Shown in pieces: positions 16,755 to 34,651 of a stretch of DNA of 64,000 nt (positions within the stretch are counted from its first letter, which is position 1; every line of letters starts with the position of its first letter). Location: NCBI GenBank assembly GCA_964465315.1, contig CAYXIK010000007.1, positions 18,840 to 82,839 of the forward strand, in the 5' to 3' direction. Under the pieces are notes generated by a model. It was given only the letters and a program-made list of their open reading frames with translations. It searched no databases and had not been told where the DNA came from. The translations under genes were made by a program, and so were the position numbers. This stretch comes from an uncultured Gemmatimonadaceae bacterium. Its GTDB lineage: Bacteria; Gemmatimonadota; Gemmatimonadetes; Gemmatimonadales; GWC2-71-9.

Positions 16755-18191
16755 TCAATACCGCGGCAGCGATCGGTCCACGTTCACGGCCCACGCGTCG
16801 ATGCCGCCGCGCAGACTACGCACCTTCGAAAAGCCCGCGGCCTTCAGGATCTCCAGCGCCTTGAGCGAGCGCGACCCGTGATGGCAGTGGGTCACGATGT
16901 CCTGGTGACCGTCCAGCTCGCCGAGCCGGTCCGGTAGCTCGCTCAGCGGGATGAGCCGCGCACCATCGATGTGCGCGATCGCGTGCTCGTGCGGATCGCG
17001 TACGTCGATCACGAGCAAGTTCGGGTTGCGTTGCCATTCGTCCTTCAGCTGCTCGGCGCTGATCTCCACCCCTTCGTAGGACGGCTCGGCGCCGATGCCG
17101 CAGAACGCCTCATAATCAATCAGCTCGGTGATCGTGGGGCGACGGCCGCAGACCGGGCAGTCGGGATCCTTCTCGAGCCGCAGCTCACGGAATTGCAGCT
17201 TGAGGGCGTCGAACAACACCAGGCGTCCGATGAGCGGCTCGCCCGCGCCGAGGATCAGCTTGATAGTCTCCATCGCCTGGATCGAGCCGATGATGCCGGG
17301 TAGGACGCCAAGGACGCCCCCTTCCGCGCACGACGGGACCAGACCCGGCGGCGGGGGCTCCGCGTAGAGACAGCGGTAGCAGGGACCTCGCTTCGCGTGA
17401 AACACCGATGCCTGTCCCTCGAAGCGGAAAATGGAGCCGTAGACATTCGGCTTGTCGAGCAGGACGCACGCGTCATTCACGAGGTAGCGGGTCGGGAAGT
17501 TGTCCGTCCCGTCCGCCACGACGTCGAACTCACGGATGATGTCGAGAGCGTTCTCGGACGTCAGCCGGGTGTCGAACGGCTCGACCCGCACGTTCGGATT
17601 CAGATCGTGGATGCGCGCCGCCGCGGACTCGAGCTTGGACGTACCGACCGTGGAGGTGCCGTGCAGGATCTGCCGCTGCAGGTTGGTCTTGTCCACGACA
17701 TCGAAATCCACGATGCCGATGGTACCGACGCCAGCGGCCGCCAGATACAGGGCGGCCGGTGATCCCAGTCCCCCTGCCCCTACGAGCAGCACGCGCGCCG
17801 CCTTGAGCTTCTTTTGCCCTTCGACGCCCACGTCCGGGAGGATGAGATGGCGCGAGTAGCGCAGGATCTCTTCGTGCGACAATACGGGCGCCGCAGGCTG
17901 CGCCCCTACGGTAGCCGTCCCTCCCGCGATGCTTGGGATGATCGAGACCGTGTCGCCCGCTTTGACCGGCGTGTCGCGCTGGGCGAGCTGCCGGATATCG
18001 CGGTCGTTCACATACACATTGACAAAGCTGCGCAACCGGCCGTCCTCAGCAAAAAGATGCTGCTTCAACGTCGTGTGCTCACCGGTCAGCCGCTCGAGTA
18101 ACTCTCCCACGCTCCCGGCTTCGACCTGGAGGGCGTCGCGCCCGCCTACGAAGGGACGCAACGGCGTGGGGATCAGGACCGTCACCGCCAT
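16755..18191 (-). CDS. three-domain fusion: MoaD/ThiS/CysO-like beta-grasp sulfur carrier (ends ..IAGG), MoeB/ThiF/MoeZ-type E1-like adenylyltransferase, and a C-terminal rhodanese
   Basis: 478 aa. Residues 1-91 read MAVTVLIPTPLRPFVGG...GDTVSIIPSIAGG, with the Gly-Gly encoded at 17919-17924. Then LRYSRHLILPDVG...VLLVGAGGLGSPAALYLAAAG and CxxC pairs (CYRC, CPVC). The C-terminal rhodanese has the active-site loop THCHHGSRS. Confidence 0.85.
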   Translation of the reverse strand: MAVTVLIPTPLRPFVGGRDALQVEAGSVGELLERLTGEHTTLKQHLFAEDGRLRSFVNVYVNDRDIRQLAQRDTPVKAGDTVSIIPSIAGGTATVGAQPAAPVLSHEEILRYSRHLILPDVGVEGQKKLKAARVLLVGAGGLGSPAALYLAAAGVGTIGIVDFDVVDKTNLQRQILHGTSTVGTSKLESAAARIHDLNPNVRVEPFDTRLTSENALDIIREFDVVADGTDNFPTRYLVNDACVLLDKPNVYGSIFRFEGQASVFHAKRGPCYRCLYAEPPPPGLVPSCAEGGVLGVLPGIIGSIQAMETIKLILGAGEPLIGRLVLFDALKLQFRELRLEKDPDCPVCGRRPTITELIDYEAFCGIGAEPSYEGVEISAEQLKDEWQRNPNLLVIDVRDPHEHAIAHIDGARLIPLSELPDRLGELDGHQDIVTHCHHGSRSLKALEILKAAGFSKVRSLRGGIDAWAVNVDRSLPRY

Positions 18192-18625
18192 ACGACCTTC
18201 CGTTCCTCGTTGGTGATCTCCTCTTCCTCGAATATCCCACGATCGTCCGCGAGAACCCAGCTCTTCAGGTCGGCCGCCCTACCGCGTTCCACGCCAACGA
18301 TGACGTAGGAAAACCTGGGCCAGGCCTGCTCCCGGTCGAACGCCGAGGGCACCGGTGGATGATCGGGATGGGAATGATACACGCCGATCACGTCGAGACC
18401 GTCACGTTCCAGCCGCTCCTCGCCGCGCCTGAACGATTCCGGGTCGATCAAGTAACGATTGCGCGCCGAGTCGGTCCGCCGGTTCACGAGCGGCACCAGC
18501 TGAACCGCGACCTTGTCGTGCCCCTCGACACTCCCGCCGATCAAGCCACAGGCCTCCGCCGGGTAGTCCGCCTCGCCGTGCCGACGAATCGCCGATGCGT
18601 GTCTTGGATCGAGCACGAGTGTCAC
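18182..18625 (-). CDS. JAMM/MPN+ family metallopeptidase (Mec/CysO-peptidase-like)
   Basis: 147 aa. Carries the E (AEACGLIGG) and HSHPDHPPVPSAFD elements, which fit the JAMM motif E-x(n)-H-S-H-x7-S-x2-D. Confidence 0.85.
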   Translation of the reverse strand: MTLVLDPRHASAIRRHGEADYPAEACGLIGGSVEGHDKVAVQLVPLVNRRTDSARNRYLIDPESFRRGEERLERDGLDVIGVYHSHPDHPPVPSAFDREQAWPRFSYVIVGVERGRAADLKSWVLADDRGIFEEEEITNEERKVVWR

Positions 18626-19590
18626 GCGATCTCTCTCTCCCCCGTAAGCCTTCGGGGCTCGCTCAGGTAGCGGGTCCCCGAGTCCGGCGCCACGACGACG
18701 ACGACGTCGGACGATCGGACAGTCGCATGGTCGGACAGGACACGCTCCGCGGCCACGAGTGCCGCCCCCGTGGACCAGCCTACCAACAGTCCAGCTTCCC
18801 TGGCCAGCCGTCTGACGGCGTCCTCGCCGTCCTCCGTCGCCACGAACTCTGTCTGGTCCGCCAGTGCTGGATCGTAAATGCCGGGCACGATCGCGGTCGC
18901 CAGGTGCTTCAGTCCTTCGAGGCCGTGGAACGGCCCGTCGGGCTGCACGGCGACCAGCTCAATCTCTGGCTTCAATTCCTTTAACCGCCGACCGGCGCCC
19001 ATCATCGTGCCGGTGGTACCCAGCCCCGCCACGAAGTGCGTGACCCGGCCCGCCGTCTGGCGCCAGATCTCCTCGGCGGTCGTCACGTAGTGCGACCGGA
19101 CGTTGGCTGGATGGTTGTATTGATCCGCATACCAGTACCGCTCCGGCTCCGCAACCGCGAGCGCGCGAGCCGCCCGGATCGCTCCGTCCGACCCCTCGAG
19201 TGGATCCGTGAAAATGACCTCGGCTCCGTGCGCCTCGAGCAGTGCCTTCCGCTCGGCGCTCGCGTTGCGGGGGACACACACCGTCACGCCGATTCCCGCC
19301 GCGACCCCGAGGGTCGCGTACCCGATGGCGGTATTGCCGCTGGACGCGTCGAGGAGGCGCTTGCGGGGCAACTCGCCCCGCGCGATGCCGTCGCGAAGGA
19401 TGAACAACGCTGGACGGTCCTTGACGGAGCCGCTCGGGTTGAACCATTCACATTTCAGCAGGACGGTCCGACCGTGAGACAGTCGGACGGGCGTGAGCGG
19501 CGTATTACCGACCAGCGCCCAGAGCGCCGGCTCGGCAAACGTCTTGCTGCTCGCACATCCGACCGTTCGACGGTCCGCGGCCGTCTTCAT
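18622..19590 (-). CDS. cysM: PLP-dependent cysteine synthase (CysM/CysK family; by context a sulfur-carrier-thiocarboxylate-dependent CysM)
   Basis: Begins MKTAADRR and contains LVGNTPLTPV...KCEWFNPSGSVKDRPA...SSGNTAIG...GLGTTGTMMG. The ATG at 19588-19590 overlaps the rhodanese stop (ATGA). The upstream 166 aa of the track ORF are out of frame with the rhodanese gene. Confidence 0.85.
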   Translation of the reverse strand: MKTAADRRTVGCASSKTFAEPALWALVGNTPLTPVRLSHGRTVLLKCEWFNPSGSVKDRPALFILRDGIARGELPRKRLLDASSGNTAIGYATLGVAAGIGVTVCVPRNASAERKALLEAHGAEVIFTDPLEGSDGAIRAARALAVAEPERYWYADQYNHPANVRSHYVTTAEEIWRQTAGRVTHFVAGLGTTGTMMGAGRRLKELKPEIELVAVQPDGPFHGLEGLKHLATAIVPGIYDPALADQTEFVATEDGEDAVRRLAREAGLLVGWSTGAALVAAERVLSDHATVRSSDVVVVVAPDSGTRYLSEPRRLTGEREIA

Positions 19591-20438
19591 TCCGCTCCCT
19601 TCACAATCGGCGCACCGACCAGGTTCCCCCACTCCGTCCACGAGCCGTCGTAGTTGCGCACCTTCTTCACGCCCAACAGGTACTTGAGCGCGAACCACGT
19701 GTGGCTCGACCGCTCCCCGATGCGGCAATACGCGATCACTTCGTCCTTGCCATCGATCACCTTCGCGCCTTTGTACAGCTGCATCAGGTCCTCGTACGGC
19801 TTGAAGGTGCCGTCTTGAGCCACCGCCTGACTCCACGGAATGTTCTTCGCGCCCGGAATGTGTCCGGCCCGTTGCGCCGTCTCCGTCATGCCCGGCGGCG
19901 CAATGATTTCGCCGACGAATTCTGGTTTGGAGCGCACGTCGACGAGCGCCGTCTTCTTGGCTTTGAGCGCCTTTTCCACCTCCTGCCGCTTGGCGCGGAT
20001 CGACGCGTTCGCCTTCTTCGGGACCGGGTAGGTGGACCGCCGGACGGTCGCGCGGTCGGACACGAGCGGTCGACCTTCCGCGACCCACTTGGCCCGCCCG
20101 CCGTTCATGAGTTTCGCGTTCGTGTGCCCGTACAATTGCAGCAGCCAGAAGGCGAACGCCGCAAACCAGTTGTTATTGTCGCCGTAGAGAACCACCGTCG
20201 TCTTAGAAGTCACCCCGGCCTCGGAGAGCAGCTTGGCGAAGGCCGTTTTGTCCGGGATGTCCCGGCGCACAGGGTCGTTGAGCTGGGATTGCCAGTTCCA
20301 GCCCACAGCGCCGGCGACGTGGCCGGCATCGTACGCCGTCGTGTCCACGTCGACCTCGATCAGTCGGATGGCCGGATCGCTGAGGTGGGCAGCCACCCAG
20401 TCGGTCGACACGAGCGCCTCGGGATGCGCGTATGGCAC
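19587..20438 (-). CDS. two-domain rhodanese (thiosulfate/3-mercaptopyruvate sulfurtransferase)
   Basis: Contains LVSTDWVAAHL and the active-site loop YCRIGERSSHTWF. The track start is a TTG at 20450. A GTG at 20436-20438 has GGAGG 5 nt upstream and is preferred. Confidence 0.85.
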   Translation of the reverse strand: MPYAHPEALVSTDWVAAHLSDPAIRLIEVDVDTTAYDAGHVAGAVGWNWQSQLNDPVRRDIPDKTAFAKLLSEAGVTSKTTVVLYGDNNNWFAAFAFWLLQLYGHTNAKLMNGGRAKWVAEGRPLVSDRATVRRSTYPVPKKANASIRAKRQEVEKALKAKKTALVDVRSKPEFVGEIIAPPGMTETAQRAGHIPGAKNIPWSQAVAQDGTFKPYEDLMQLYKGAKVIDGKDEVIAYCRIGERSSHTWFALKYLLGVKKVRNYDGSWTEWGNLVGAPIVKGAE

Positions 20439-20513
20439 GGTTGCCTCCAATTCGGTTAAACCCGACAGTGCCAGTCGGGTTTCAGTTGAAAAAAAACAAT
20501 CGGGACGGCCGAA

Positions 20514-20966
20514 CTAGTTCCCGGCCAGAACCCCGGCGATTTGGTACAGCTCGGGTTCGTCGTGCGTGAGATCGGCGAGCGAAATGCCGGCCAGCAAATT
20601 GTTGATCCGCTGCTCGAGCATTCGCCAGACCGGCCGGATGCTACACGACGCATCCGGACTACATCGCTGAGGATCGACGGGATGGAGATCGCAGTTGACT
20701 TCGAAGGTGACGTGCTCGGAGGCCTCGACCACGTCCTTGACGCTGATGGCTTGCGGCTCACGGGCGAGGTGATAGCCACCCTTTGCCCCGCGGACCGACT
20801 CGACCAGCCCGCCACGCCGCAAACGGAGGAGAATCTGCTCCACGTAATCGTGCGGCAACCGCTCCTGCTCGGCAAGCTCACGCGCCGCAACCGGCCCCTG
20901 CCCCGCGCGCTTGGCGAGGTTCAGCGACACGATCAACCCGTACTCGGCCCAGGTGGTGACGCGCAT
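20514..20966 (-). CDS. Rrf2 family transcriptional regulator (IscR/CymR-like)
   Basis: 150 aa, beginning MRVTTWAEYGLIVSLNLAKRAG, and containing GLVESVRGAKGGYHLAR. The C-terminal half has Cys residues (NCDL...RCSPDASC), possibly Fe-S ligands. Confidence 0.85.
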   Translation of the reverse strand: MRVTTWAEYGLIVSLNLAKRAGQGPVAARELAEQERLPHDYVEQILLRLRRGGLVESVRGAKGGYHLAREPQAISVKDVVEASEHVTFEVNCDLHPVDPQRCSPDASCSIRPVWRMLEQRINNLLAGISLADLTHDEPELYQIAGVLAGN

Positions 20967-24386: not shown

Positions 24387-24929
24387 TCACTTCGTCGGCT
24401 CCACGCGCAGGCTGTCGTTGAAGCGATTGAAGTATTCGGTCATCCCGATGACCAGCGTGATCTCGACGATCTGCCCGTCGTCCCAGGCCGACCGGAGCCG
24501 ACCGTACAGCTCGTCCGTGACGTCGTGTCCCGACCGATGCATAACCTCCGCATACTCGAGCGCCGCCCGCCACCCGGGCTCGAGGGCCCCGATCGCTTGT
24601 CGTTTCCCGCGATCTTGGATCGCCTCGAGCAAGTCGGCGCTCGCACCCTTCTGTCCTGCCAGGACAGTGTGGGAATTGAGTCAGTAGCGGCACCTATTCA
24701 GGTGCGAGATCCGCACCCAGAGCAGCTCTTTGAGGAGCGGCGGCACCGTTCCCTCGTTCATCACCGTGCGGAAGTGCGCGATCAGGGTCCGCAGGTGCGG
24801 CGGGCGGAGCGCCACGGTGCGGAACATGTTCGGGATGTTCCCCCGCTCCTTGAGATACGTCTCGAAGATGGGTCGCACCGCTGGCGCCGCTTGCTCGGGC
24901 GTCAGTGGCGCGATGCGTGGCTTGGTCAT
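24387..24929 (-). CDS. AhpD-like/carboxymuconolactone decarboxylase (CMD) family protein with an in-frame TGA at 24681-24683. Candidate selenoprotein (C-x-x-U); alternatively a Cys-to-stop pseudogene.
   Basis: Track ORFs 24681..24929 and 24387..24632 are in the same frame. They are separated only by the TGA plus 16 sense codons. Read-through gives 180 aa: ...LLWVRISHLNRCRY-[TGA]-LNSHTVLAGQKGASADLLEAIQD... The TGA sits at the second Cys of the family motif C-x-x-C-x-x-x-H. Confidence 0.65.
24651..24667 (-). promoter_or_regulatory. hairpin 13 nt downstream of the in-frame UGA (SECIS-like candidate)
   Basis: The RNA reads UGA-CUCAAUUCCCACA-CUGUCCU-GGC-AGGACAG. This is a 7-bp stem with a G-containing apical loop, which can be widened to a 6-bp stem with loop UGGCA. 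Confidence 0.4.
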
Positions 24930-25807: not shown

Positions 25808-25996
25808 TCAGTCGGAGCAGTCACCCAAGGGGTAAATGAAGCCGCAGTTCGGGCAGGGGTTCTTGCAGCCCCACAGCCGCGGCAGCACCTCGGCGCCGCA
25901 CCGTAAGCACGTCGCCCGTGGCCTAGCCGAGCCGGTAGGCGCCGGTGAGGAAGGGATTGGTGTGGCGCTCTCGGCCCACCGTGGTTTCGGGTCCAT
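25808..25996 (-). CDS. small four-Cys zinc-ribbon-like ORF (hypothetical)
   Basis: 62 aa, ending CLRCGAEV...CKNPCPNCGFIYPLGDCSD. Its first 74 nt overlap the 3' end of the MBL gene. No alternative start exists after the MBL stop. Confidence 0.3.
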   Translation of the reverse strand: MDPKPRWAESATPIPSSPAPTGSARPRATCLRCGAEVLPRLWGCKNPCPNCGFIYPLGDCSD

Positions 25997-26561
25997 GACC
26001 GCTGTACACGATGGTCGAATCGGGGAGCGTAAGCAACTCGCGCTCGATGCTCCGGATCAGCGTCTCCAGGTCGCCCCCGGGCAGGTCTGTGCGACCGATC
26101 GAACCCTGGAACAGGACGTCGCCAGTAAACACGACGCCCTGGCCCTCGAACACGACACTTCCGGGCGAATGTCCCGGCGCGTGGCGCACCCGAAACTCGA
26201 GGTTCCCGACCGAGAGGACATCTCCGTGCTCCAGGGCGCGGTCGGGTTCGGGCAACGCCTCAGCGCGCAGGCCGAACGCAAAGGCTTGCTCGAGAACGTG
26301 ATCGTAGAGGACGCGATCGGCGGGATGCACGCACACGGGAGCCCGCGTGTCCGCCTTGAGACGGGGAACGCCGAGCACATGATCGATGTGCGCGTGCGTC
26401 AGCCAGATTCCGACGGGCTGGACGCCAGCGGCCGCGAGCTTGTGCGCGATCAAGCCGGCTTCCTCACCCGGGTCGATGATCGCACAGGCGCCGCTCGGCT
26501 CGTCGATCACAAAGTAACAGTTCTCCGCGAACTGCCCATTCGGGATCTGCACCACGCGCAT
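25923..26561 (-). CDS. MBL-fold metallo-hydrolase (glyoxalase II-like)
   Basis: 212 aa with THAHIDHVLG (the HxHxDH motif). Also contains HAPGHSPGS and the GD...GR motif. Confidence 0.85.
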   Translation of the reverse strand: MRVVQIPNGQFAENCYFVIDEPSGACAIIDPGEEAGLIAHKLAAAGVQPVGIWLTHAHIDHVLGVPRLKADTRAPVCVHPADRVLYDHVLEQAFAFGLRAEALPEPDRALEHGDVLSVGNLEFRVRHAPGHSPGSVVFEGQGVVFTGDVLFQGSIGRTDLPGGDLETLIRSIERELLTLPDSTIVYSGHGPETTVGRERHTNPFLTGAYRLG

Positions 26562-26574
26562 GGTGGCGAGCCGC

Positions 26575-27552
26575 CTAGTCCGTTTGCCGCATGGCGGTGA
26601 GGTACTTCTCCACCGCGATCGCCGCGGTGGTCGCGTCGCCGACGGCGGTGGTGATCTGGCGGGTGAGCTGGCTGCGCACGTCGCCCGCCGCGAACAAGCC
26701 GGGGATCGAGGTCATCATGCGGTCGTCAGTCACGAAATAGCCATTCGCGTCGTGCTTCGCATGGCCCTCGACGAGACCGGAGTTAGGCTGGAAGCCGATG
26801 AAGATGAAAACGCCCCCCACCGTTAGCGTCGAGTGTTCGCCCGACACCGTGTCCTCGAGGACGAGGCCGTCGGTGCCCTTCGCCGTCCCGGTGATTTCTA
26901 GCACCTTCTTGTTCCAGATGACCTCGATCTTAGGATTTGCAAAGGCCCGCTGCTGCAAAATCTTCGATGCGCGGAAACGATCGCGGCGGTGCACGATGTA
27001 GACCTTCGCGGCGTATCGCGTCAGGTAATCGGCCTCTTCCACGGCGGCGTCCCCGCCCCCGATGACGGCCAGAATCTCACCCTTGAAGAAAGCCCCATCG
27101 CACACGGCACAGTACGACACGCCCTTCCCCGCGTGCTCCTTCTCGCCCGGCACGCCGAGCTTCACCGGCGTGCCGCCAGCGGTGAGGATAACGGCCGGCG
27201 CGCGGTACATGTGCCCATGGGCGGTCGCGACATCGAACCAGCCGTCCGATGCCTGGCGGACCTTCTCCACCGTATCGGTGACGAGCTGGGCGCCGAACTT
27301 CTTCGCGTGCTCCGCCATTTTTTGCGCGAGCTCCCACCCCTTGATGCTCTCGAACCCGATGTAGTCTTCGATGAGATCGGTGTTCAAGAGCTCGCCACCG
27401 GGTGCACCCCGCTCGATCGTGAGCCCCTTGAGCATGCCCCGGCCTACGTACATCGCCGCGCAGAGGCCCGCCGGCCCTGCTCCAACGATGATCACATCGT
27501 AGCCGTTGGTCGCGCGATCAGTCATTCGCTCGCCATTCCAGTCGTGGGGCAT
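26575..27552 (-). CDS. trxB: thioredoxin-disulfide reductase
   Basis: Contains YDVIIVGAGPAGLCAAMY, the redox centre CAVCDG, and GGGDAAVEEA. An alternative start at 27525 (MTDRATNGYD) would remove the overlap with the DUF309 gene. Confidence 0.9.
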   Translation of the reverse strand: MPHDWNGERMTDRATNGYDVIIVGAGPAGLCAAMYVGRGMLKGLTIERGAPGGELLNTDLIEDYIGFESIKGWELAQKMAEHAKKFGAQLVTDTVEKVRQASDGWFDVATAHGHMYRAPAVILTAGGTPVKLGVPGEKEHAGKGVSYCAVCDGAFFKGEILAVIGGGDAAVEEADYLTRYAAKVYIVHRRDRFRASKILQQRAFANPKIEVIWNKKVLEITGTAKGTDGLVLEDTVSGEHSTLTVGGVFIFIGFQPNSGLVEGHAKHDANGYFVTDDRMMTSIPGLFAAGDVRSQLTRQITTAVGDATTAAIAVEKYLTAMRQTD

Positions 27553-27874
27553 CTTCCTGCCCCGCCAGAGCGCTCGCCAGGCGCGCGCGAAATGTCACGG
27601 TCTCGAATGCCACATCGGGGCGCTGCGGGCCCTCGAGCTTCTCCAACGCGCCAGCCCCGACGACCGCGACGCCGTGACGGTTCCCCCGCTCCCGATGCAG
27701 CAGCGCGGCCGCGCCCTGGATCAATCCCTGCCACACGCGAGCCGCGTCCTCGTCGCCGTCGCTAATAATAGAACGCCAGACGGTTTCCAGCGCTTCGTGG
27801 GCGAGCCAGTACTCACCGGAGTTGAACCAGGCGCGGGCGCTGGAGAGCGTTGCGTGGCGCTCGTCAGGGGTCAC
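27518..27874 (-). CDS. DUF309 domain protein
   Basis: GTG start at 27872-27874, overlapping the upstream stop (GTGA). Contains ARAWFNSGEYWLAHEALETVW...WQGLIQGAAALLHRERGN, the DUF309 signature. Confidence 0.6.
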   Translation of the reverse strand: MTPDERHATLSSARAWFNSGEYWLAHEALETVWRSIISDGDEDAARVWQGLIQGAAALLHRERGNRHGVAVVGAGALEKLEGPQRPDVAFETVTFRARLASALAGQEDAPRLEWRAND

Positions 27875-28650
27875 GCGGCCCCGATCCTCAGCAAGTTCAG
27901 CGCGCCATGGCAGGCACTGATGGTCCCCACCAGCACGGCGGTGGCCGCGCCACTCTCGCCCGCCTCTTGCACCAACGCATCGCCCTCGAGCACCGCGTCG
28001 ACCGCGAACGTGCCGACGCCGAAGACGTGATGACGGCACACGAACAGGGCCGGCCCGTGCACCGCCTCCCCTGCCCCGCGCAACTGAGCTGCCAGCGCGC
28101 GCACCGCGTCCCCCATCTCCCAGGTGCGCGTGCTGCCGATGGCCGGGCACACCGCGGGCTCGATGCAGTGGGTCGGACAGATCCAGTCGGCGAATGACAC
28201 GTAGCGCGTTCCGTCCGGAAGCGCGGCGGTCCGGTCATACGGCGTGTCCAACGTCCCCGGCACCTCCGCAACCTCGACCGACCGTCCCGGCCACCGCGCG
28301 CGCGCACGCGCGAGCACCCACTGAAACATGAGGTGCGGCATATGAGGTGATGGCACGATGTAATCGCGTGGGGCCGCCGCATCCGCGCCGCTCGCGCCGG
28401 CTCCGCCGAGAAACTCGTGAAAGAATTCGGTCCAGTCACGCGTGACGAACGCGCGGTCGGACGCCTCACCCAGCTCGACGCGCGCTCGGCAGGCGGCGTC
28501 GCGGTCGACGACGATGACCCGGCGATACCGGGCCTTGCGCCGGTCCCGCGCCTTCGCGAGCTGTCTGGCGTAAAACGTCCCGTAGCACCCACCCCCGACG
28601 ATGATCACGTCGCGCATCACGACGCCGTCGGACGGCCCGGTGTTAGACAT
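27871..28650 (-). CDS. uncharacterised Rossmann (FAD/NAD(P)-binding-like) protein with a Cys-rich CPTHCIEPAVCP motif
   Basis: 259 aa. The N-terminus VIIVGGGCYGTFYARQL is a dinucleotide-binding fingerprint. I recognised no family for the remainder. Confidence 0.5.
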   Translation of the reverse strand: MSNTGPSDGVVMRDVIIVGGGCYGTFYARQLAKARDRRKARYRRVIVVDRDAACRARVELGEASDRAFVTRDWTEFFHEFLGGAGASGADAAAPRDYIVPSPHMPHLMFQWVLARARARWPGRSVEVAEVPGTLDTPYDRTAALPDGTRYVSFADWICPTHCIEPAVCPAIGSTRTWEMGDAVRALAAQLRGAGEAVHGPALFVCRHHVFGVGTFAVDAVLEGDALVQEAGESGAATAVLVGTISACHGALNLLRIGAA

Positions 28651-29410
28651 CGCCCCCGGTGACAGGTAGGATCTCGCCGGTCACGGCTCGCGCTTCGTCG
28701 CTCGCGAGGTAGAGGACCGCCGCCACCAACTCGTCGAGCTCGACCCACCGGACCTTCGCGCCCGTCATCTGGGCGAGGTTGTCGCTCGTTTTCATGGTGC
28801 CGGGCGCGACCGCGTTGACCCGTATCCCGTCGTCGCGGAGCTCGCGCGCGAGCGCGCGCGTAAGGCCGGCCACCGCCGCCTTGGCGGCCGTGTAGATCGC
28901 CATCTGGTTCTGTGGCTTCAAGACGGCGACCGAAGCGAAGTTGACGATGGCCCCGCCTCCCCGCGCGCGCAGCGCCGGGATCGCCGCCTGGGACACGTAG
29001 AACGTGGTCTTTACGTTGATCGCCAGCTCGCGCTCGAGCCGGTCGGGGGTCAGATCGGTCGCGGGGCCGAAGCTCACGAGTCCGCCCGCGACGTTCACCA
29101 CCACATCCAACCCACCGTAGCGCTCGCCCGCGGCGGCCACTGCCCGACGAGCCACATCGGGGGTGGTGAGGTCACCCGCCACCGGATGGACCACGAAGCC
29201 CACGGACCCGAACTCCTTCGCCCGCTCCGCAAGCCCCCCTTCGTTCACGTCCGCGATCACGAGCCGCGCGCCCGCCCGCCCGAAGCCCTGGGCGACCGCA
29301 TGCCCGATCTGACCGACCCTGCCCACGCCGGTGACGAGGGCGACCTTGCCGCGGTAGTCAGGAGGCACGCGCGACGATCTCATCGACCGGTGGGGCGCCA
29401 CGGCGTGCAA
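28643..29410 (-). CDS. short-chain dehydrogenase/reductase (SDR)
   Basis: 255 aa. Contains KVALVTGVGRVGQIG, NVAGG and the catalytic YTAAKAAV motif. Confidence 0.85.
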   Translation of the reverse strand: MHAVAPHRSMRSSRVPPDYRGKVALVTGVGRVGQIGHAVAQGFGRAGARLVIADVNEGGLAERAKEFGSVGFVVHPVAGDLTTPDVARRAVAAAGERYGGLDVVVNVAGGLVSFGPATDLTPDRLERELAINVKTTFYVSQAAIPALRARGGGAIVNFASVAVLKPQNQMAIYTAAKAAVAGLTRALARELRDDGIRVNAVAPGTMKTSDNLAQMTGAKVRWVELDELVAAVLYLASDEARAVTGEILPVTGGDV

Positions 29411-29798
29411 AGGCGACCATGCCGTCTCGGTTCACGACGTAGACGGAGCGCTGGATGCCCCGGTCGTCGTCCTTCAAGGCATGGTACGCACGCGCGATCG
29501 TCCGGTCCGGGTCGGACAGCAGTGGGAAATTGAAGTGCAGCTTCCGTACGTAGCCGGCATGGCTGTCGATGCCGGCCGGGTTCACGCCGAAGGGCTGGAT
29601 GCCCGCTCGCTGGAACTTTGCCATCTCGTCGCGCACGGCGGAGAGTTGGCGGTTTCACCCAGGCGTGTTGTTGCCCGGATAGAACACCAGGGCGACGGCG
29701 GTGGTCTTCAAGAGGTCGGCAAGACGGTACATATTTCCGTCAGATGCTTGTGCGGCGAAGCCTGGCGCCTTGCTGCCGATCTCCAACAGATCGCTCAT
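29358..29798 (-). CDS. Bcp-type peroxiredoxin (AhpC/TSA family) with an in-frame TGA at 29655-29657 in place of the peroxidatic Cys. Candidate selenoprotein; alternatively a pseudogene.
   Basis: My own translation from the ATG at 29796-29798 gives MSDLLEIGSKAPGFAAQASDGNMYRLADLLKTTAVALVFYPGNNTPG-[TGA]-NRQLSAVRDEMAKFQRAGIQPFGVN...LLSDPDR... This aligns with the Bcp motif FYPKxxTPGCTxQ. The ATG overlaps the PHP gene stop (ATGA). The track shows only the 92-aa C-terminal ORF. Confidence 0.7.
29624..29644 (-). promoter_or_regulatory. hairpin starting 11 nt downstream of the peroxiredoxin UGA (SECIS-like candidate)
   Basis: The RNA reads UGA-AACCGCCAAC-UCUC-CGC-[CGUGC]-GCG-AC-GAGA. It has a 4-bp lower stem, a 2-nt bulge, a 3-bp upper stem and an apical loop containing GU. 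Confidence 0.35.
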
Positions 29799-30751
29799 GA
29801 CGGACCCTGACGATCCTGTGTGACGGGTTCACGCAACACCGCGGCGCGACGGTGCTCGAGCTGCTCGAGCCATGCCATCGGAATGTCTAGTCCGCCGAGC
29901 GCCGCGTGGGATTCTCCGAGCTCGGCGTCTCCGTGCCAATCGGAGCCGCCGCTGATGCTGAGAGAGAGACGGTCGGCGATCGCCGTGAGCCGACGCTCGA
30001 TGCCGGGCGAGTGGCTCGGGTGCCGGACCTCGAGACCGTCGAGACCCTGCGCCTGAAACTGTCGAATCTGGGCTTCGGTCCCGTGGTCCCCCAAGTGCGC
30101 GGCAACGGCGATCCCCCCGACTTCGTGGACCAGCGCTGTCACCTGCTGCAGCGTCGGCAGGGGCTTCTCGACGTAGGCGGGCCGGCCCCGACCCAGGTAG
30201 CGCACAAAGGCCTCGTTCATGTCGGCGCTCACGCCCTGCTCGATCAGCACTCGGGCTACGTGCGGACGGCCAAGAGCCCCGCCGTCCGCGGCGCGTTCGA
30301 CGTCCGCGAGCTCGATGTCGATGCCCAAGCGCTGCAGGTGTCCCACGATCTGCTCCGCGCGGCGCCGGCGCGCCGCCCGAGTGCCGGTCAGGAACTCCTC
30401 GAGGCGCGCCGACCCCGGCGGCAGGAAGTACCCCAGGAGATGCAGCTCACCCCAGGGTGCCCGCACGCTGAACTCAGACCCCGAAACAACGCGAACCCCG
30501 AGCGCCTCACCCGCGCGAGTGGCTTCGGGAACGCCGTCGGTCGTGTCGTGATCGGTGAGGGCGATGGCCGCGAGTCCGGCCGCTCGGGCCAGCCTGACTA
30601 CCTCGGCCGGCGGGTACTCGCCGTCCGAGGCGGTCGAATGGCAATGCAGATCAACGCGCGCCGTATTCTCCCTCCGGCGCTGTCCATGCCGGCTGTGACT
30701 CGTGGAACAACCGCACCACCGTTTGCTCGGGCATCTCCGCGAACGCGGCAT
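29795..30751 (-). CDS. PHP-domain metal-dependent phosphoesterase (start uncertain)
   Basis: Contains ARVDLHCHSTASDGEYPPAEVV...ALTDHDT... The conserved N-terminus begins near 30653, where there is no ATG, GTG or TTG. The nearest in-frame ATG is at 30751, inside the upstream gene. Confidence 0.7.
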   Translation of the reverse strand: MPRSRRCPSKRWCGCSTSHSRHGQRRRENTARVDLHCHSTASDGEYPPAEVVRLARAAGLAAIALTDHDTTDGVPEATRAGEALGVRVVSGSEFSVRAPWGELHLLGYFLPPGSARLEEFLTGTRAARRRRAEQIVGHLQRLGIDIELADVERAADGGALGRPHVARVLIEQGVSADMNEAFVRYLGRGRPAYVEKPLPTLQQVTALVHEVGGIAVAAHLGDHGTEAQIRQFQAQGLDGLEVRHPSHSPGIERRLTAIADRLSLSISGGSDWHGDAELGESHAALGGLDIPMAWLEQLEHRRAAVLREPVTQDRQGPS

Positions 30752-30920
30752 CCGGACTGCGGTTCCCGACCGGCGAGTAACGCGTGAAACGGCGCCGCCG
30801 TTCGGGCCCGGTACCCTGCTCGAACACCAGGCCGAACTCATCGCGCCCGTACACCGTCACGCGACCCGAGGGGAACACCCGCCACGGGGCCCCGTCCACG
30901 ACGATCGTCCGTCGCGCCAT
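30651..30920 (-). CDS. hypothetical protein (89 aa)
   Basis: Very high third-position GC in this frame, unlike the overlapping PHP-frame extension. I recognised no family. Confidence 0.5.
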   Translation of the reverse strand: MARRTIVVDGAPWRVFPSGRVTVYGRDEFGLVFEQGTGPERRRRFTRYSPVGNRSPDAAFAEMPEQTVVRLFHESQPAWTAPEGEYGAR

Positions 30921-30927
30921 GGTCTCT

Positions 30928-31242
30928 CTACGCCTCGCTGCCGGCCGCGAGCGACACTTCGGTCCACAGCTCCCACGCGTCGGGCGCGTAGGTGCCGAGG
31001 CTCTGCAACCGTCTCTCGAGCTTGATCTCTTCGGGCAGACGCGACGCCTGCGCCCGGTGCGACATCTCGGTCTGGCTCTCCGAGAATTCCGTGAACAGCT
31101 GGGGATCCTTGGCGTTGCGGAAGATCCAGATGCGCTGACCGCGCGCCTCGGCGAACTGACACAGCTCCCGGAGGGTGGCGAGGTAGTCGGCCTCGTTGGT
31201 GGGGGGCACCCGCACCCGTGCTGCCGTGAGCACCTTGGCCAT
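30928..31242 (-). CDS. hypothetical protein (104 aa)
   Basis: Begins MAKVLTAARVRVPPTNEADYLATLRELCQF. It follows the E2 gene after 2 nt. I recognised no family. Confidence 0.5.
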   Translation of the reverse strand: MAKVLTAARVRVPPTNEADYLATLRELCQFAEARGQRIWIFRNAKDPQLFTEFSESQTEMSHRAQASRLPEEIKLERRLQSLGTYAPDAWELWTEVSLAAGSEA

Positions 31243-31244
31243 GG

Positions 31245-32606
31245 CTAGATCGCTCCCTCGGGGAAGTCCTCGAGCGCGCGCTTCACGTCGGCGAGGAACC
31301 GGTCGGCGTCCGCACCGTCCACGACGCGGTGGTCGTACGACATCGACAGCATCCCCATCGTCCGTATCGCGATCGTGTCCGTGCCGTCGGGGAGCGTCAC
31401 GACCTTGGGGCGCTTCTCGATCGCGCCGACGCCTAAGATCGCCACCTGCGGCTGGTTGATGATCGGCGCGCCCGCGTACGACCCGAACACGCCCGGGTTC
31501 GTAATCGTGAACGTGCCGCGCTGGATCTCGTCGGGCGACAGCTTCTTGCTGCGGGCCCGTTCGCCGAGATCGTTGATCGCGCGGGCCAACCCGGACAGCG
31601 AGAGCTCGTCCGCGCGCTTCACCACGGGAACGATCAGCCCCCAGTCGAGGGCCACGGCGATCCCGATGTTCACGTCGCGGCGGTAGATGATATTGTCGCC
31701 GGAAACGGCGGCGTTCACCACGGCGTGCTTCCGGAGGTTCTCAGCAGCGATCTTCGCGATGAACGCGAGGTACGTCAGGCTCACTCCGCGCTCGGCATAT
31801 GCGGCCTTATGCTTGCGGCGCAGCTCCGCCACCCGGCTGTAGTCGACCTCGAAGAAGCTCGTCACGTGCGCCGACGTGCGGCGCGACATGATCATGTGAT
31901 CCGCGGTGATCTTGCGGATCTTCGAGAACGGCTCGACCCGGTCGCCGGGCCAGGGTTCGACGATCGGATGTGCGACGGGGCCGGACGGCGCGGGAGCGGG
32001 GAGCCGGGAGCCGGGAGCGGTCGGGGCGGGCACGCCGCGCTCGATGAACCCCAGAATGTCCTGCTTGGTGACCCGCCCGGCGAAACCGCTTCCCGGAATC
32101 GTCGAGATATCCACCTGATGCTCGGCGGCGATCTTCCGGACCAGGGGTGTGGACTTGCGCCGCAGGCGCTCCTCGGCGGTCTCAACGCCCCCGTCCCCCT
32201 TCGGGGGAACGGGGGAGGACGGAGAAGGACGGGGGAGGACGGGGGAGGTTGCCGCCGGTGTCGGCGCCGGCTTCGGAGCTGGCGGCGACGACGCAACCGC
32301 AGCCCCCGAAGCCGCGGGCGCCCGCTGGGCTGCTGCGGAGGGGGCTGCGGTCGAGGCGGCGCCCTTGTCGGTCTCGATCACCGCCACGAGCGTCTGTACC
32401 GGGACGGTCTGTCCCTCCTGGACCTTGATCTCGGCCAGAACGCCGGCGGTGGGCGCGGGGATCTCCGCGTCCACCTTATCGGTCGAGATCTCGAACAGCG
32501 GCTCGTCCCGCTTCACGTCGTCGCCGAGCTTCTTGAGCCACTTGCTCAACGTACCTTCGGCGATCGACTCGCCCATTTGGGGCATTAACACGTCAACGCG
32601 CGCCAT
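31245..32606 (-). CDS. 2-oxoacid dehydrogenase E2 component (dihydrolipoamide acyltransferase)
   Basis: 453 aa. Lipoyl domain contains MPQMGESIAEGTLSKW...ISTDKVDAEIPAP. It also has Ala/Pro linkers, a peripheral subunit-binding domain, and a catalytic region with SYDHRVVDGA. Confidence 0.9.
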   Translation of the reverse strand: MARVDVLMPQMGESIAEGTLSKWLKKLGDDVKRDEPLFEISTDKVDAEIPAPTAGVLAEIKVQEGQTVPVQTLVAVIETDKGAASTAAPSAAAQRAPAASGAAVASSPPAPKPAPTPAATSPVLPRPSPSSPVPPKGDGGVETAEERLRRKSTPLVRKIAAEHQVDISTIPGSGFAGRVTKQDILGFIERGVPAPTAPGSRLPAPAPSGPVAHPIVEPWPGDRVEPFSKIRKITADHMIMSRRTSAHVTSFFEVDYSRVAELRRKHKAAYAERGVSLTYLAFIAKIAAENLRKHAVVNAAVSGDNIIYRRDVNIGIAVALDWGLIVPVVKRADELSLSGLARAINDLGERARSKKLSPDEIQRGTFTITNPGVFGSYAGAPIINQPQVAILGVGAIEKRPKVVTLPDGTDTIAIRTMGMLSMSYDHRVVDGADADRFLADVKRALEDFPEGAI

Positions 32607-32615
32607 GACCGCTCC

Positions 32616-33596
32616 TCAATACGCCGCGAGCCATCTCGCAGCTTTCACAATGTCTTCCGTCTGCGGCAGCACGAAGTCCTCGAGCGTCGGTGCATACGGG
32701 AGCGGCACGTCGTGCGCCGTCACCCGCATGATCGGGCCGTCGAGCCAGGCGAACGCCTGCTCGTTGATGCGCGCCGCGATCTCGCCCGCAACGCCGCCGG
32801 TCCGCGTGTCCTCGTGCACGATCAAGACTTTGTTCGTCTTCTGCACCGTCCGCATGATCGCCGCGTCGTCCATCGGCAGGAGGGTGCGCAAGTCGAGCAC
32901 CTCGACGGACAGGCCGTCGTCCTTGGCCAGCTGCTCGGCGGCCTCGAGCGACTTCCACACCGTGGCCCCGTAGGTGACGACGGACAGGTCCTTCCCCTCG
33001 CGGGCGAGGCGCGCCTCGCCGATCGGCGTGAGGACCTCCTCCCCGTCCGGGAGCGCCTCCTTGATGCGACGGTACAACCACTTATGCTCGAGGTAGATCA
33101 CCGGATCGTCGTCGCGAATAGACGCCTTGATCAACCCCTTCGCGTCCCGCGCCGTGGCGGGATAGACGATCTTCAGGCCGGGCGTGTGAAAGAAGGCGGC
33201 CTCGGGATTCTGCGAGTGAAACGGTCCACCCCGTACGTAGCCGCCACACGGTCCGCGCACCACGATCGGCGTCGCGAGGCCCGCCCGGTAGCGCGCCGTC
33301 GCCACGTAGTTGGTGAGCATGTCGTAGGCGCAGGAGATGAAGTCGATGAACTGCATCTCCGCGACGGGTCGCATGCCCATGTGGGCCGCACCGGCCGCCG
33401 CGCCGACGATCGCCGCCTCCGATATCGGCGTGTCGATGACCCGCTGCTCCCCAAACTTCTTTGCGAACCCCTCGGTAACCTTGAAGGCGCCGCCGTATGG
33501 TCCCACGTCCTCGCCCAGGATGAACACGCGGGGGTCGCGCTCCATTTCCTCCCAGAGCCCCTGGCGCAGCGCCTCGAGGTAGGTGACGTCCGCCAT
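32616..33596 (-). CDS. 2-oxoacid dehydrogenase E1 component beta subunit
   Basis: Begins MADVTYLEALRQGLWEEMERDPRVFILGEDVG. The start ATG at 33594-33596 overlaps the E1-alpha stop by 1 nt. Confidence 0.9.
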   Translation of the reverse strand: MADVTYLEALRQGLWEEMERDPRVFILGEDVGPYGGAFKVTEGFAKKFGEQRVIDTPISEAAIVGAAAGAAHMGMRPVAEMQFIDFISCAYDMLTNYVATARYRAGLATPIVVRGPCGGYVRGGPFHSQNPEAAFFHTPGLKIVYPATARDAKGLIKASIRDDDPVIYLEHKWLYRRIKEALPDGEEVLTPIGEARLAREGKDLSVVTYGATVWKSLEAAEQLAKDDGLSVEVLDLRTLLPMDDAAIMRTVQKTNKVLIVHEDTRTGGVAGEIAARINEQAFAWLDGPIMRVTAHDVPLPYAPTLEDFVLPQTEDIVKAARWLAAY

Positions 33597-34651
33597 CACA
33601 GGCCCCGATACCAGTGCCGGGGGGCTGCCGGCGGATCGACGTACACGCCGTCCAGCGCGGACTCGGGCGGCGGGAGCGCGTCGTCCACGCACGCGTCGGT
33701 CGCCTCGTCGATCTCCGCCGTGACCCGTTCGTCGATCTCCTTGAGCTCACGGCCCTCCGCCCATTCGTTTTGCACCAGCTGCCTCACGTAGCGGTCCACC
33801 GGATCGTTTTCCTTCGCCCACCAGTCGAGCTCGTCCTTGGGCACGTAATGCTGGTCGTCGTGCTCGGCGTGACCTCTGCGCCGATAGGTCTTCACCTCGA
33901 TCAAGTGCACGCCGTGCCCGCGACGCGCGCGCTCCACGGCGAACTTCGTCGCCTCGTAGACCGCGAGCACGTCGTTCCCGTCGACGGTGGTCCCCGGAAT
34001 CCCGTAGCCTTTGGCCTTCTCGGCCAGATCCTTGACGGCGAACTGCTTCTCGGGCGGCGTCGAATAGGCCCAGCGGTTGTACTCCGCGATCACGACGAGC
34101 GGCACCTTCTGCACCGCGGCGAAGTTCAGACCCTCGTGGAACGTGCCCGTGGAGGTCGCCCCGTCTCCGATGTACACGAGGCCTACACGCGGCTCACCCC
34201 GCAGCTTGAACGTGAGCGCAATCCCCGCCATCACCGGGACCATGTCGCCCAGGTGGGAGATCTGTCCCAAGTAGCCCTTCTCTAAGTCGTTGAAGTGCAC
34301 ATTGAGCTCGCGACCCTGCGTGGGGCTCCCGGCCTTGGCCATGTACTGGCGTAAGATCTCGATCGGCTGTGCGCCCATGACGAGCATCGAGCCCAGGTTG
34401 CGGATCAGCGGCGAAAGGATGTCCTGGTTACGCCCCCGCTCGAGGGCGTACGCCGTCGCGACGGACTCCCCCTCCTGACCCAGGGAGCGAAACAAGCCGC
34501 CGATCACCTTGCTTTGGCGGTACAACGCCGTCAGCCGCTCCTCGAGGGTCCGCGTGAGCCGGAGGTAGCGATAGATTTCGAGCAGGTGGTCGCGGGCGAG
34601 GCCCGCCGGGATGGGCGGCGACTGTCGGGCGGGAGCGGCGCGCGATACCAT
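33596..34651 (-). CDS. 2-oxoacid dehydrogenase E1 component alpha subunit (TPP-dependent)
   Basis: 351 aa. Contains YIGDGATSTGTFHEGLNFAA, the TPP-binding motif region. Confidence 0.9.
   Translation of the reverse strand: MVSRAAPARQSPPIPAGLARDHLLEIYRYLRLTRTLEERLTALYRQSKVIGGLFRSLGQEGESVATAYALERGRNQDILSPLIRNLGSMLVMGAQPIEILRQYMAKAGSPTQGRELNVHFNDLEKGYLGQISHLGDMVPVMAGIALTFKLRGEPRVGLVYIGDGATSTGTFHEGLNFAAVQKVPLVVIAEYNRWAYSTPPEKQFAVKDLAEKAKGYGIPGTTVDGNDVLAVYEATKFAVERARRGHGVHLIEVKTYRRRGHAEHDDQHYVPKDELDWWAKENDPVDRYVRQLVQNEWAEGRELKEIDERVTAEIDEATDACVDDALPPPESALDGVYVDPPAAPRHWYRGL

Follow-up and report, generated by a model that had tools for sequence, protein, structure and literature searches.

A peroxiredoxin gene in an uncultured Gemmatimonadaceae bacterium carries an in-frame TGA at the position of the family's catalytic cysteine, which raises the question of whether this codon ends translation or specifies selenocysteine (Sec). 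The gene is on the minus strand of a 64,000-nucleotide stretch of DNA (contig CAYXIK010000007.1, positions 18,840 to 82,839), the whole of which we refer to as the window. Our analysis of the sequence indicates that nucleotides 29798 to 29358 very probably encode one 146-residue Bcp/PrxQ-like peroxiredoxin, with UGA48 decoded as Sec. The observations that carry this reading are the conservation of the UGA, the pairing of Cys and Sec forms at the same codon, purifying selection on both halves of the gene, constraint on the nucleotides of a hairpin after the UGA, and membership of the peroxiredoxin family. The gene and the codon in question are as follows.

29358–29798, minus strand: predicted selenoprotein gene, complete, for a 146-residue Bcp/PrxQ-like peroxiredoxin whose residue 48 is Sec (from translation, Pfam and orthologues)
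29655–29657, minus strand: putative Sec codon 48 (UGA), which fills the peroxidatic position in P41-x-x-x-T45-x-x-U48 (from alignment to the TPGC Cys, and from conservation)

Translation of the minus strand from 29798 to 29358 gives MSDLLEIGSKAPGF...VALVFYPGNNTPG*NRQLSAVRDEMAKF...ARAS*, with 146 sense positions. The only internal stop in this 146-codon frame is the TGA at codon 48, which stands in the context ...VALVFYPGNNTPG-[TGA]-NRQLSAVRDEMAKF..., and the start codon (ATG, 29796–29798) shares the sequence ATGA with the TGA stop of the upstream PHP-domain open reading frame (ORF; 29795–30841). A preliminary description of this locus had proposed both the 146-residue frame and the ATGA overlap; the former is confirmed by translation and the latter is seen in the sequence. 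TGA is the ordinary stop codon in about half of the ORFs called in the window, that of the peroxiredoxin gene included, and the genetic code is therefore not reassigned. The terminator of the peroxiredoxin gene (29358–29360, minus strand) being itself TGA, a single mRNA would use UGA for Sec at codon 48 and as a stop at codon 147. At its 3′ end the gene is overlapped by the start of a downstream SDR gene.

With U replaced by C for protein profile searches, the translation matches the Pfam family AhpC-TSA (PF00578) over profile positions 1–123 of 124 (E = 1.1e-30; score 106.6 bits, cut-off 26). Its full-length sequence matches to solved structures are led by Bcp/PrxQ-type proteins, namely 5enu (3.7e-19), 3drn, 2cx3 and the Xanthomonas Bcp series. 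Position 48 aligns with the TPGC Cys in the solved Bcp structures, and the codon-48 TGA aligns with the TPGC Cys in every Cys homologue. The active-site motif PxxxTxxC is present as P41-G-N-N-T45-P-G-U48, in which P41 and T45 are invariant, and the arginine of the peroxiredoxin active site is likewise retained.

29664–29666, minus strand: codon for Thr45 of the peroxiredoxin catalytic motif (unchanged across alignment A2 and the 80 species described below)
29448–29450, minus strand: codon for Arg117, the conserved peroxiredoxin active-site arginine (invariant in A2; aligned to the ERSTF Arg of 5enu)

The placement of the TGA at the peroxidatic Cys of a Bcp-type peroxiredoxin, as put forward in the preliminary description, is thus borne out by Pfam, by the structure matches and by the alignment to Cys homologues. 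None of the NCBIfam models passes its cut-off for this protein. The best of them, Bcp PRK09437, scores 64.7 bits and stays under its equivalog cut-off of 140, and membership of PrxU (NF040737) was rejected at 41.6 bits against a cut-off of 270.

The translation contains no cysteine at all, and the +5 position after U48, the site of the resolving Cys in many Bcp proteins, is occupied by Ser53. Assignment to the atypical 2-Cys Bcp/PrxQ type was rejected on these grounds. A Cys at +5 is present in some distant Cys homologues (P0045 and P0068, with CNKQLC and CNRQLC). Having no cysteines, the protein would, if active, be a 1-Sec enzyme recycled by an external thiol, that is, a Sec-containing analogue of the 1-Cys-type peroxiredoxins. 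A database homologue of 123 aa, P0037 (source 'src'), has Ser in place of the peroxidatic residue, in the context ...FYPGNNTPGSNRQLSAVRDE..., and its N terminus is garbled; this could be a genuine Ser variant or an artefact of the way in which the source translated TGA.

To place the codon in a wider context, we scanned one genome per GTDB species and kept the best-matching 80 loci, all of them from metagenome-assembled genomes (MAGs) of Gemmatimonadales/Gemmatimonadota. Every one of these 80 species-representative loci has TGA at the peroxidatic codon, at amino-acid identities of 70–92%. A scan of metagenome contigs used an alignment of Cys forms as its query; despite this, TGA is found in 78 of the best 80 contigs and TGC in the other 2. 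Across related gene copies from independent assemblies the codon is TGA in 168 of 178. The 152 unique TGA-form genes contain no further stops, and their ratio of nonsynonymous to synonymous differences per site (pN/pS) is 0.289 upstream of the TGA (47 codons) and 0.286 over codons +11 to +89. This equality argues that both halves are translated and are selected as protein.

A protein search returned full-length Cys homologues of 147–152 aa (57–78% identity) and, in addition, many database entries of 88 or 92 aa that are 82–97% identical and span only the C-terminal 60–63% of the query. Such C-terminal-only matches are the signature of gene callers that would halt at the conserved TGA. Public gene calls indeed cut the peroxiredoxin in two, with a first ORF of 47 aa and a second of 88 or 92 aa, as in the following loci.

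L001–L010, 2827–2970 and 3001–3267: the peroxiredoxin gene as split in public gene calls, in pieces of 47 aa and 88 aa

The pieces carry names such as 'hypothetical protein' or 'redoxin domain-containing protein, partial' (the NCBI names for P0057 and P0091), and the splitting of this gene is a systematic mis-annotation across many MAGs.

Immediately after the UGA the RNA can fold into a hairpin that is a candidate bacterial Sec insertion sequence (SECIS), for which three overlapping features can be delimited by their minimum free energy (MFE), fit to the bacterial SECIS (bSECIS) model or conservation.

29624–29644, minus strand: core hairpin UCUC-CGC-[CGUGC]-GCG-A(C/U)-GAGA (from sequence, energy and fit to the bSECIS model)
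29625–29654, minus strand: nucleotide-constrained block at codons +1 to +10, AAC CGC CAA CUC UCC GCC GUG CGC GAY GAG, the putative SECIS footprint
29620–29650, minus strand: extended stem in which GCCA...UGGC closes the core hairpin, in the window only (MFE −12.7 kcal/mol)

The core hairpin consists of 7 bp interrupted by a 2-nt bulge and is capped by an apical loop of 5 nt, CGUGC, whose second and third nucleotides are G and U. It follows the UGA after 10 spacer nucleotides, so that it starts at nucleotide 11, and its loop lies 17 nt after the UGA. The bSECIS model calls for an apical loop of 3–9 nt in which one of the first two nucleotides is G and the next is usually G or U, an upper stem of 4–16 bp, a distance from UGA to loop of 16–37 nt and an MFE of at most −7.5 kcal/mol (PMC13188914). 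The loop, G position, stem and spacing of the peroxiredoxin hairpin all lie within these limits. The energy limit is passed by the window sequence, at the −12.7 kcal/mol of the extended stem, and, when nucleotides +1 to +42 are folded, by 90% of the 96 unique relatives. The extended stem itself is not kept in relatives, in which the flanking sequence of codons 11–12 varies.

The evidence for the hairpin comes from conservation and not from folding energy. Among 80 unique sequences, third-position entropy is 0 at codons +1, +4, +5, +6, +7, +8 and +10, compared with about 1–1.5 bits at fourfold-degenerate sites elsewhere in the gene, and the synonymous difference per site (pS) is 0.095 in codons +1 to +10 against 0.56–0.59 in the remainder. 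The sole variable base within the hairpin (GAC/GAU) is located in the predicted 2-nt bulge. In Cys forms the same codons vary synonymously (CTG, TCG, GTC, GTA, CGG and CGT). The energy of the core structure is −4.8 kcal/mol in Sec forms and ranges from +0.4 to +9.3 kcal/mol in Cys forms, with the exception of one Cys form, L173, at −3.9 kcal/mol.

Several claims of the preliminary description are settled by these data. It had reported a hairpin 11 nt after the UGA at 29624–29644 with GU in the apical loop, which the sequence contains, and had called for a comparison with a SECIS model, which the hairpin passes in loop, spacing and MFE, and for an alignment of homologues at the peroxidatic position, which shows Cys in all Cys homologues. 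Its central proposal, that the gene is a candidate selenoprotein, is upheld by the alignment of the UGA with Cys, the conservation of the UGA, equal selection on the two flanks and a SECIS-like hairpin that is frozen only in the Sec forms.

The hairpin shares with the E. coli fdhF SECIS element and the bSECISearch model a location within the coding sequence right after the UGA, a small loop with G then U, and a bulge on the 3′ side. Its loop G and U are 22–23 nt from the U of the UGA, against G23/U24 in the numbering of the fdhF SECIS. It has no sequence similarity to the fdhF element, its stem is shorter and weaker (7 bp), and it has no match in Rfam.

A number of results weigh against the interpretation of the UGA as a Sec codon. 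Compared with shuffled sequences, the folding energy is unremarkable (z = +0.46 and −1.5) in a sequence of 67.5% GC, and the core stem alone, at −4.8 kcal/mol, is weak. The hairpin is identical in the 168 Sec-form copies and, because it is invariant, offers no compensatory covariation. Rfam gave no SECIS match for the whole window at the gathering threshold, nor for 29560–29720 at E ≤ 10; bacterial SECIS elements are short and family-specific, and a negative result in Rfam says little. The peptide NRQLSAVRD that follows the active site is conserved in the Cys forms too, and therefore only the synonymous-site signal is specific to an RNA element. Finally, no selA, selB, selD or tRNA-Sec was detected in the 64-kb window or in the ~180 fetched loci (ARAGORN on the window and 180 loci; Pfam and NCBIfam on about 40 window ORFs), a result that is uninformative for a genome of several megabases.

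On the same strand, 4.7 kb further downstream, is a second candidate gene. This ORF of the AhpD/carboxymuconolactone-decarboxylase family (24387–24929, minus strand; 180 codons) has a TGA at 24681–24683 in the context C-R-Y-[TGA]-LNSH, a CxxU motif, and a 7-bp hairpin, CUGUCCU-GGC-AGGACAG, 13 nt after the UGA. In NCBIfam it scores above the cut-off of ahpD_dom, while its scores for 'YciW-related (seleno)protein' and for TIGR01926 fall below the cut-offs of those models. Its relatives are mostly CRYC forms (69–80% identity), and database fragments that end in ...NRCRY or start just after it imply that other TGA forms exist. AhpD-like CxxU proteins are a catalogued selenoprotein family (PMC13188914). 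The presence of this candidate nearby lends indirect support to the reading of UGA48 as Sec. A crude scan for other read-through TGAs based on GC content at third codon positions (GC3) alone gave mostly antisense-frame artefacts, and its candidates were discarded; a stricter scan left only the peroxiredoxin gene, the AhpD-like gene and trivial gene junctions.

If UGA48 is not a Sec codon, it could in principle be a nonsense mutation, the mark of a pseudogene, or a sequencing or assembly error in the window. A single window alone cannot separate a true TGA from an error, and the N-terminal ORF has a slightly lower GC3 (0.74). But the same TGA recurs in copies that separate projects produced with different assemblers, no extra stop or frameshift accompanies it, and the stretches before and after the codon each have a pN/pS of 0.29. 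With more than 160 independent assemblies, no further stops and equal pN/pS, sequencing error, assembly error and pseudogenization are all excluded, and the probability that we leave to them is vanishingly small. The preliminary description had named three outcomes as able to overturn its proposal. A sequencing or assembly error is disposed of by the number of assemblies, and poor conservation past the TGA by the pN/pS of 0.29 upstream and downstream; the window and the fetched loci, which gave none of the genes concerned, cover too little of the genome to bear on the third, an absence of selABCD/selC.

Two further rivals take the gene to be intact. The two halves might be made separately, as a 47-residue peptide and a 92-residue product re-initiated at a GTG seven codons downstream, and act jointly or apart. 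Public gene callers predict two such ORFs, and a GTG is present at codon +7 in all 152 unique sequences; this GTG, however, belongs to the invariant loop of the hairpin, which accounts for its conservation, and no Shine-Dalgarno-like sequence precedes it. With no Cys anywhere, neither product would have a redox-active residue, yet Thr45 and Arg117 are invariant. The break also falls exactly at the catalytic codon, which is TGC or TGT in orthologues, and the synonymous constraint is limited to TGA forms. We consider a split gene very improbable. Alternatively, the UGA might be read through without Sec, for example through a suppressor tRNA or a near-cognate Trp-tRNA, or with Cys delivered by the Sec pathway, the hairpin acting as a stimulator. 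A conserved TGA and a downstream structure report on decoding only and not on the residue inserted, and the Sec machinery was found neither in the window nor in the fetched loci. Set against this, the position is that of the family's catalytic Cys, the chemistry of which only Sec or Cys would preserve; the hairpin has the geometry of a bacterial SECIS, its small apical loop, 17 nt from the UGA, carrying G-U; and TGA is a normal stop in this genome. A second CxxU gene lies nearby, and peroxiredoxin selenoproteins with a TxxU motif are experimentally established elsewhere (PMC13188914). Read-through without Sec therefore ranks with the split gene, at a probability of a very few per hundred at most in our estimate, and a single selenoprotein gene with Sec at codon 48 is the explanation that we favour.

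The distribution of Sec and Cys forms gives some indication of how this state arose. Orthologues in the same neighbourhood have TGC or TGT in place of TGA. In a rough neighbour-joining tree of 132 residues, the distant Cys forms L179, L177 and L176 fall outside one large all-Sec clade that holds the window gene, and a small Cys sub-clade (L173, L094, L174 and L095) is nested within the Sec clade beside the Sec form L093. The L173 gene (395–853; TGC) is 92% identical to L093 (TGA) and has the hairpin nucleotides intact. In L174 (3001–3459; TGT) one hairpin pair is lost, through GAG to GAA as the sole difference. The pattern suggests that Sec probably replaced Cys once, at the root of a large Gemmatimonadales clade, and that Cys later returned in the sub-clade; the L173-type sequence looks like a recent reversal that has left a fossil SECIS. 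Switching between Cys and Sec with similar dynamics has been described for peroxiredoxins (PMC1794560).

From these data we infer a mechanism in which decoding would depend on SelB, selenium would be incorporated and the product would act as a peroxidase. The hairpin, beginning 11 nt past the UGA, would work as a bacterial SECIS during translation, bringing in SelB–GTP–Sec-tRNASec so that Sec is inserted in place of termination. Sec48, Thr45 and Arg117 would form the peroxidatic centre, at which the selenolate would reduce a hydroperoxide and become a selenenic acid; an external thiol would then reduce this acid, in the manner of the 1-Cys peroxiredoxins. The likeliest reductant is thioredoxin, which would be kept reduced by the product of a thioredoxin reductase gene at the same locus.

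26575–27552, minus strand: thioredoxin-disulfide reductase, four genes downstream of the peroxiredoxin gene and on the same strand (NCBIfam TIGR01292, 358.9 bits against 343.45)

The position of this reductase gene is kept in Sec-form and Cys-form loci, and the enzyme is the probable source of reducing equivalents.

Comparison with known systems places the gene within an established group. Prx TxxU (PF00578) is listed as an experimentally verified prokaryotic selenoprotein (Table 1 in PMC13188914), and by a 2006 count there were 12 Sec-containing peroxiredoxins and 5 inferred Cys-to-Sec events (PMC1794560). The window protein resembles the Prx TxxU family of Deltaproteobacteria, Clostridia and others in its Pfam family, in the T-x-x-U of its PxxxTxxU motif, in having Sec for the peroxidatic Cys, and in the existence of Cys orthologues with switching in both directions. 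It differs in coming from soil Gemmatimonadales, in lacking a resolving Cys and indeed any Cys, and in the fixation of its Sec form, along with an invariant SECIS, throughout a large clade. PrxU of Eubacterium acidaminophilum (NF040737), a thioredoxin-dependent peroxiredoxin, also has Sec at the peroxidatic position but is not an orthologue; besides the low score given above, its model has 233 positions against the 146 residues here. PrxU belongs to the AhpC/Prx1-like branch, and the protein described here is closest to Bcp/PrxQ. With the Cys-containing Bcp/PrxQ proteins (E. coli Bcp PRK09437, Xanthomonas campestris 3gkk/5iiz, Sulfolobus Bcp1 3drn, Aeropyrum 2cx3 and Burkholderia 5enu) it has in common a length of ~150 aa, an FYPxxxTPGC-type site and the Arg, whereas it has Sec for Cys and Ser at +5 and falls below the NCBIfam Bcp cut-off.

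In our assessment this is a genuine selenoprotein gene that represents a new lineage within the known Prx TxxU family; it is not a new mechanism or a new protein family. A literature search found no report of a selenoprotein from Gemmatimonadetes/Gemmatimonadota; the text of the BSepDB paper does not name the phylum, and its supplements were outside the search. BSepDB (2026; 64,762 species genomes) may already contain the Gemmatimonadales peroxiredoxin genes. More tentatively, and with slightly more doubt than confidence, we propose that a cysteine-free 1-Sec peroxiredoxin with a nucleotide-invariant SECIS is fixed across a large clade of abundant, largely aerobic soil Gemmatimonadales. Aerobic bacteria rarely retain selenoproteins (PMC13188914). 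If the proposal is correct, selenium-dependent peroxide defence would be a lineage-wide trait in oxic soils, contrary to that rule, and a dominant soil order would use Sec in its defence against oxidative stress, tying the availability of selenium in soil to fitness. The order would also constitute an unreported Sec-using lineage that has been systematically mis-annotated, since its gene stands in public records as two ORFs, one of 47 aa and one of 88 or 92 aa; this error in public assemblies could be corrected. The locus would in addition offer a clean natural experiment on the gain and loss of Sec: with synteny preserved, Sec was apparently gained once in place of Cys, the SECIS of the Sec forms is invariant, and a reversal nested among them retains a fossil SECIS. 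For the specialist there is little surprise here; the value of the finding is for annotation and for the ecology of selenium in soils.

The genes around the peroxiredoxin occupy window positions 25923–34651 on the minus strand. In order, they encode the E1 alpha, E1 beta and E2 subunits of a 2-oxoacid dehydrogenase, two small ORFs, a PHP-domain phosphoesterase and the peroxiredoxin, followed by the SDR, an AF_1314_C-domain protein, DUF309, thioredoxin reductase and a metallo-beta-lactamase-fold protein. This order is common to Sec-form and Cys-form loci, with DUF309 present in the window and in some loci. The two small ORFs upstream of the PHP gene (104 and 89 aa) have no family match. Elsewhere in the window (16755–20450, minus strand) is a cluster that resembles those for sulfur-carrier (CysO/MoeZ-type) biosynthesis of cysteine or thiocarboxylate. 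It encodes a ThiS–ThiF–rhodanese fusion (478 aa), a JAB-domain protease, a pyridoxal phosphate-dependent (PALP) enzyme and a tandem rhodanese, and after it comes a gene for an Rrf2 regulator at 20514–20966.

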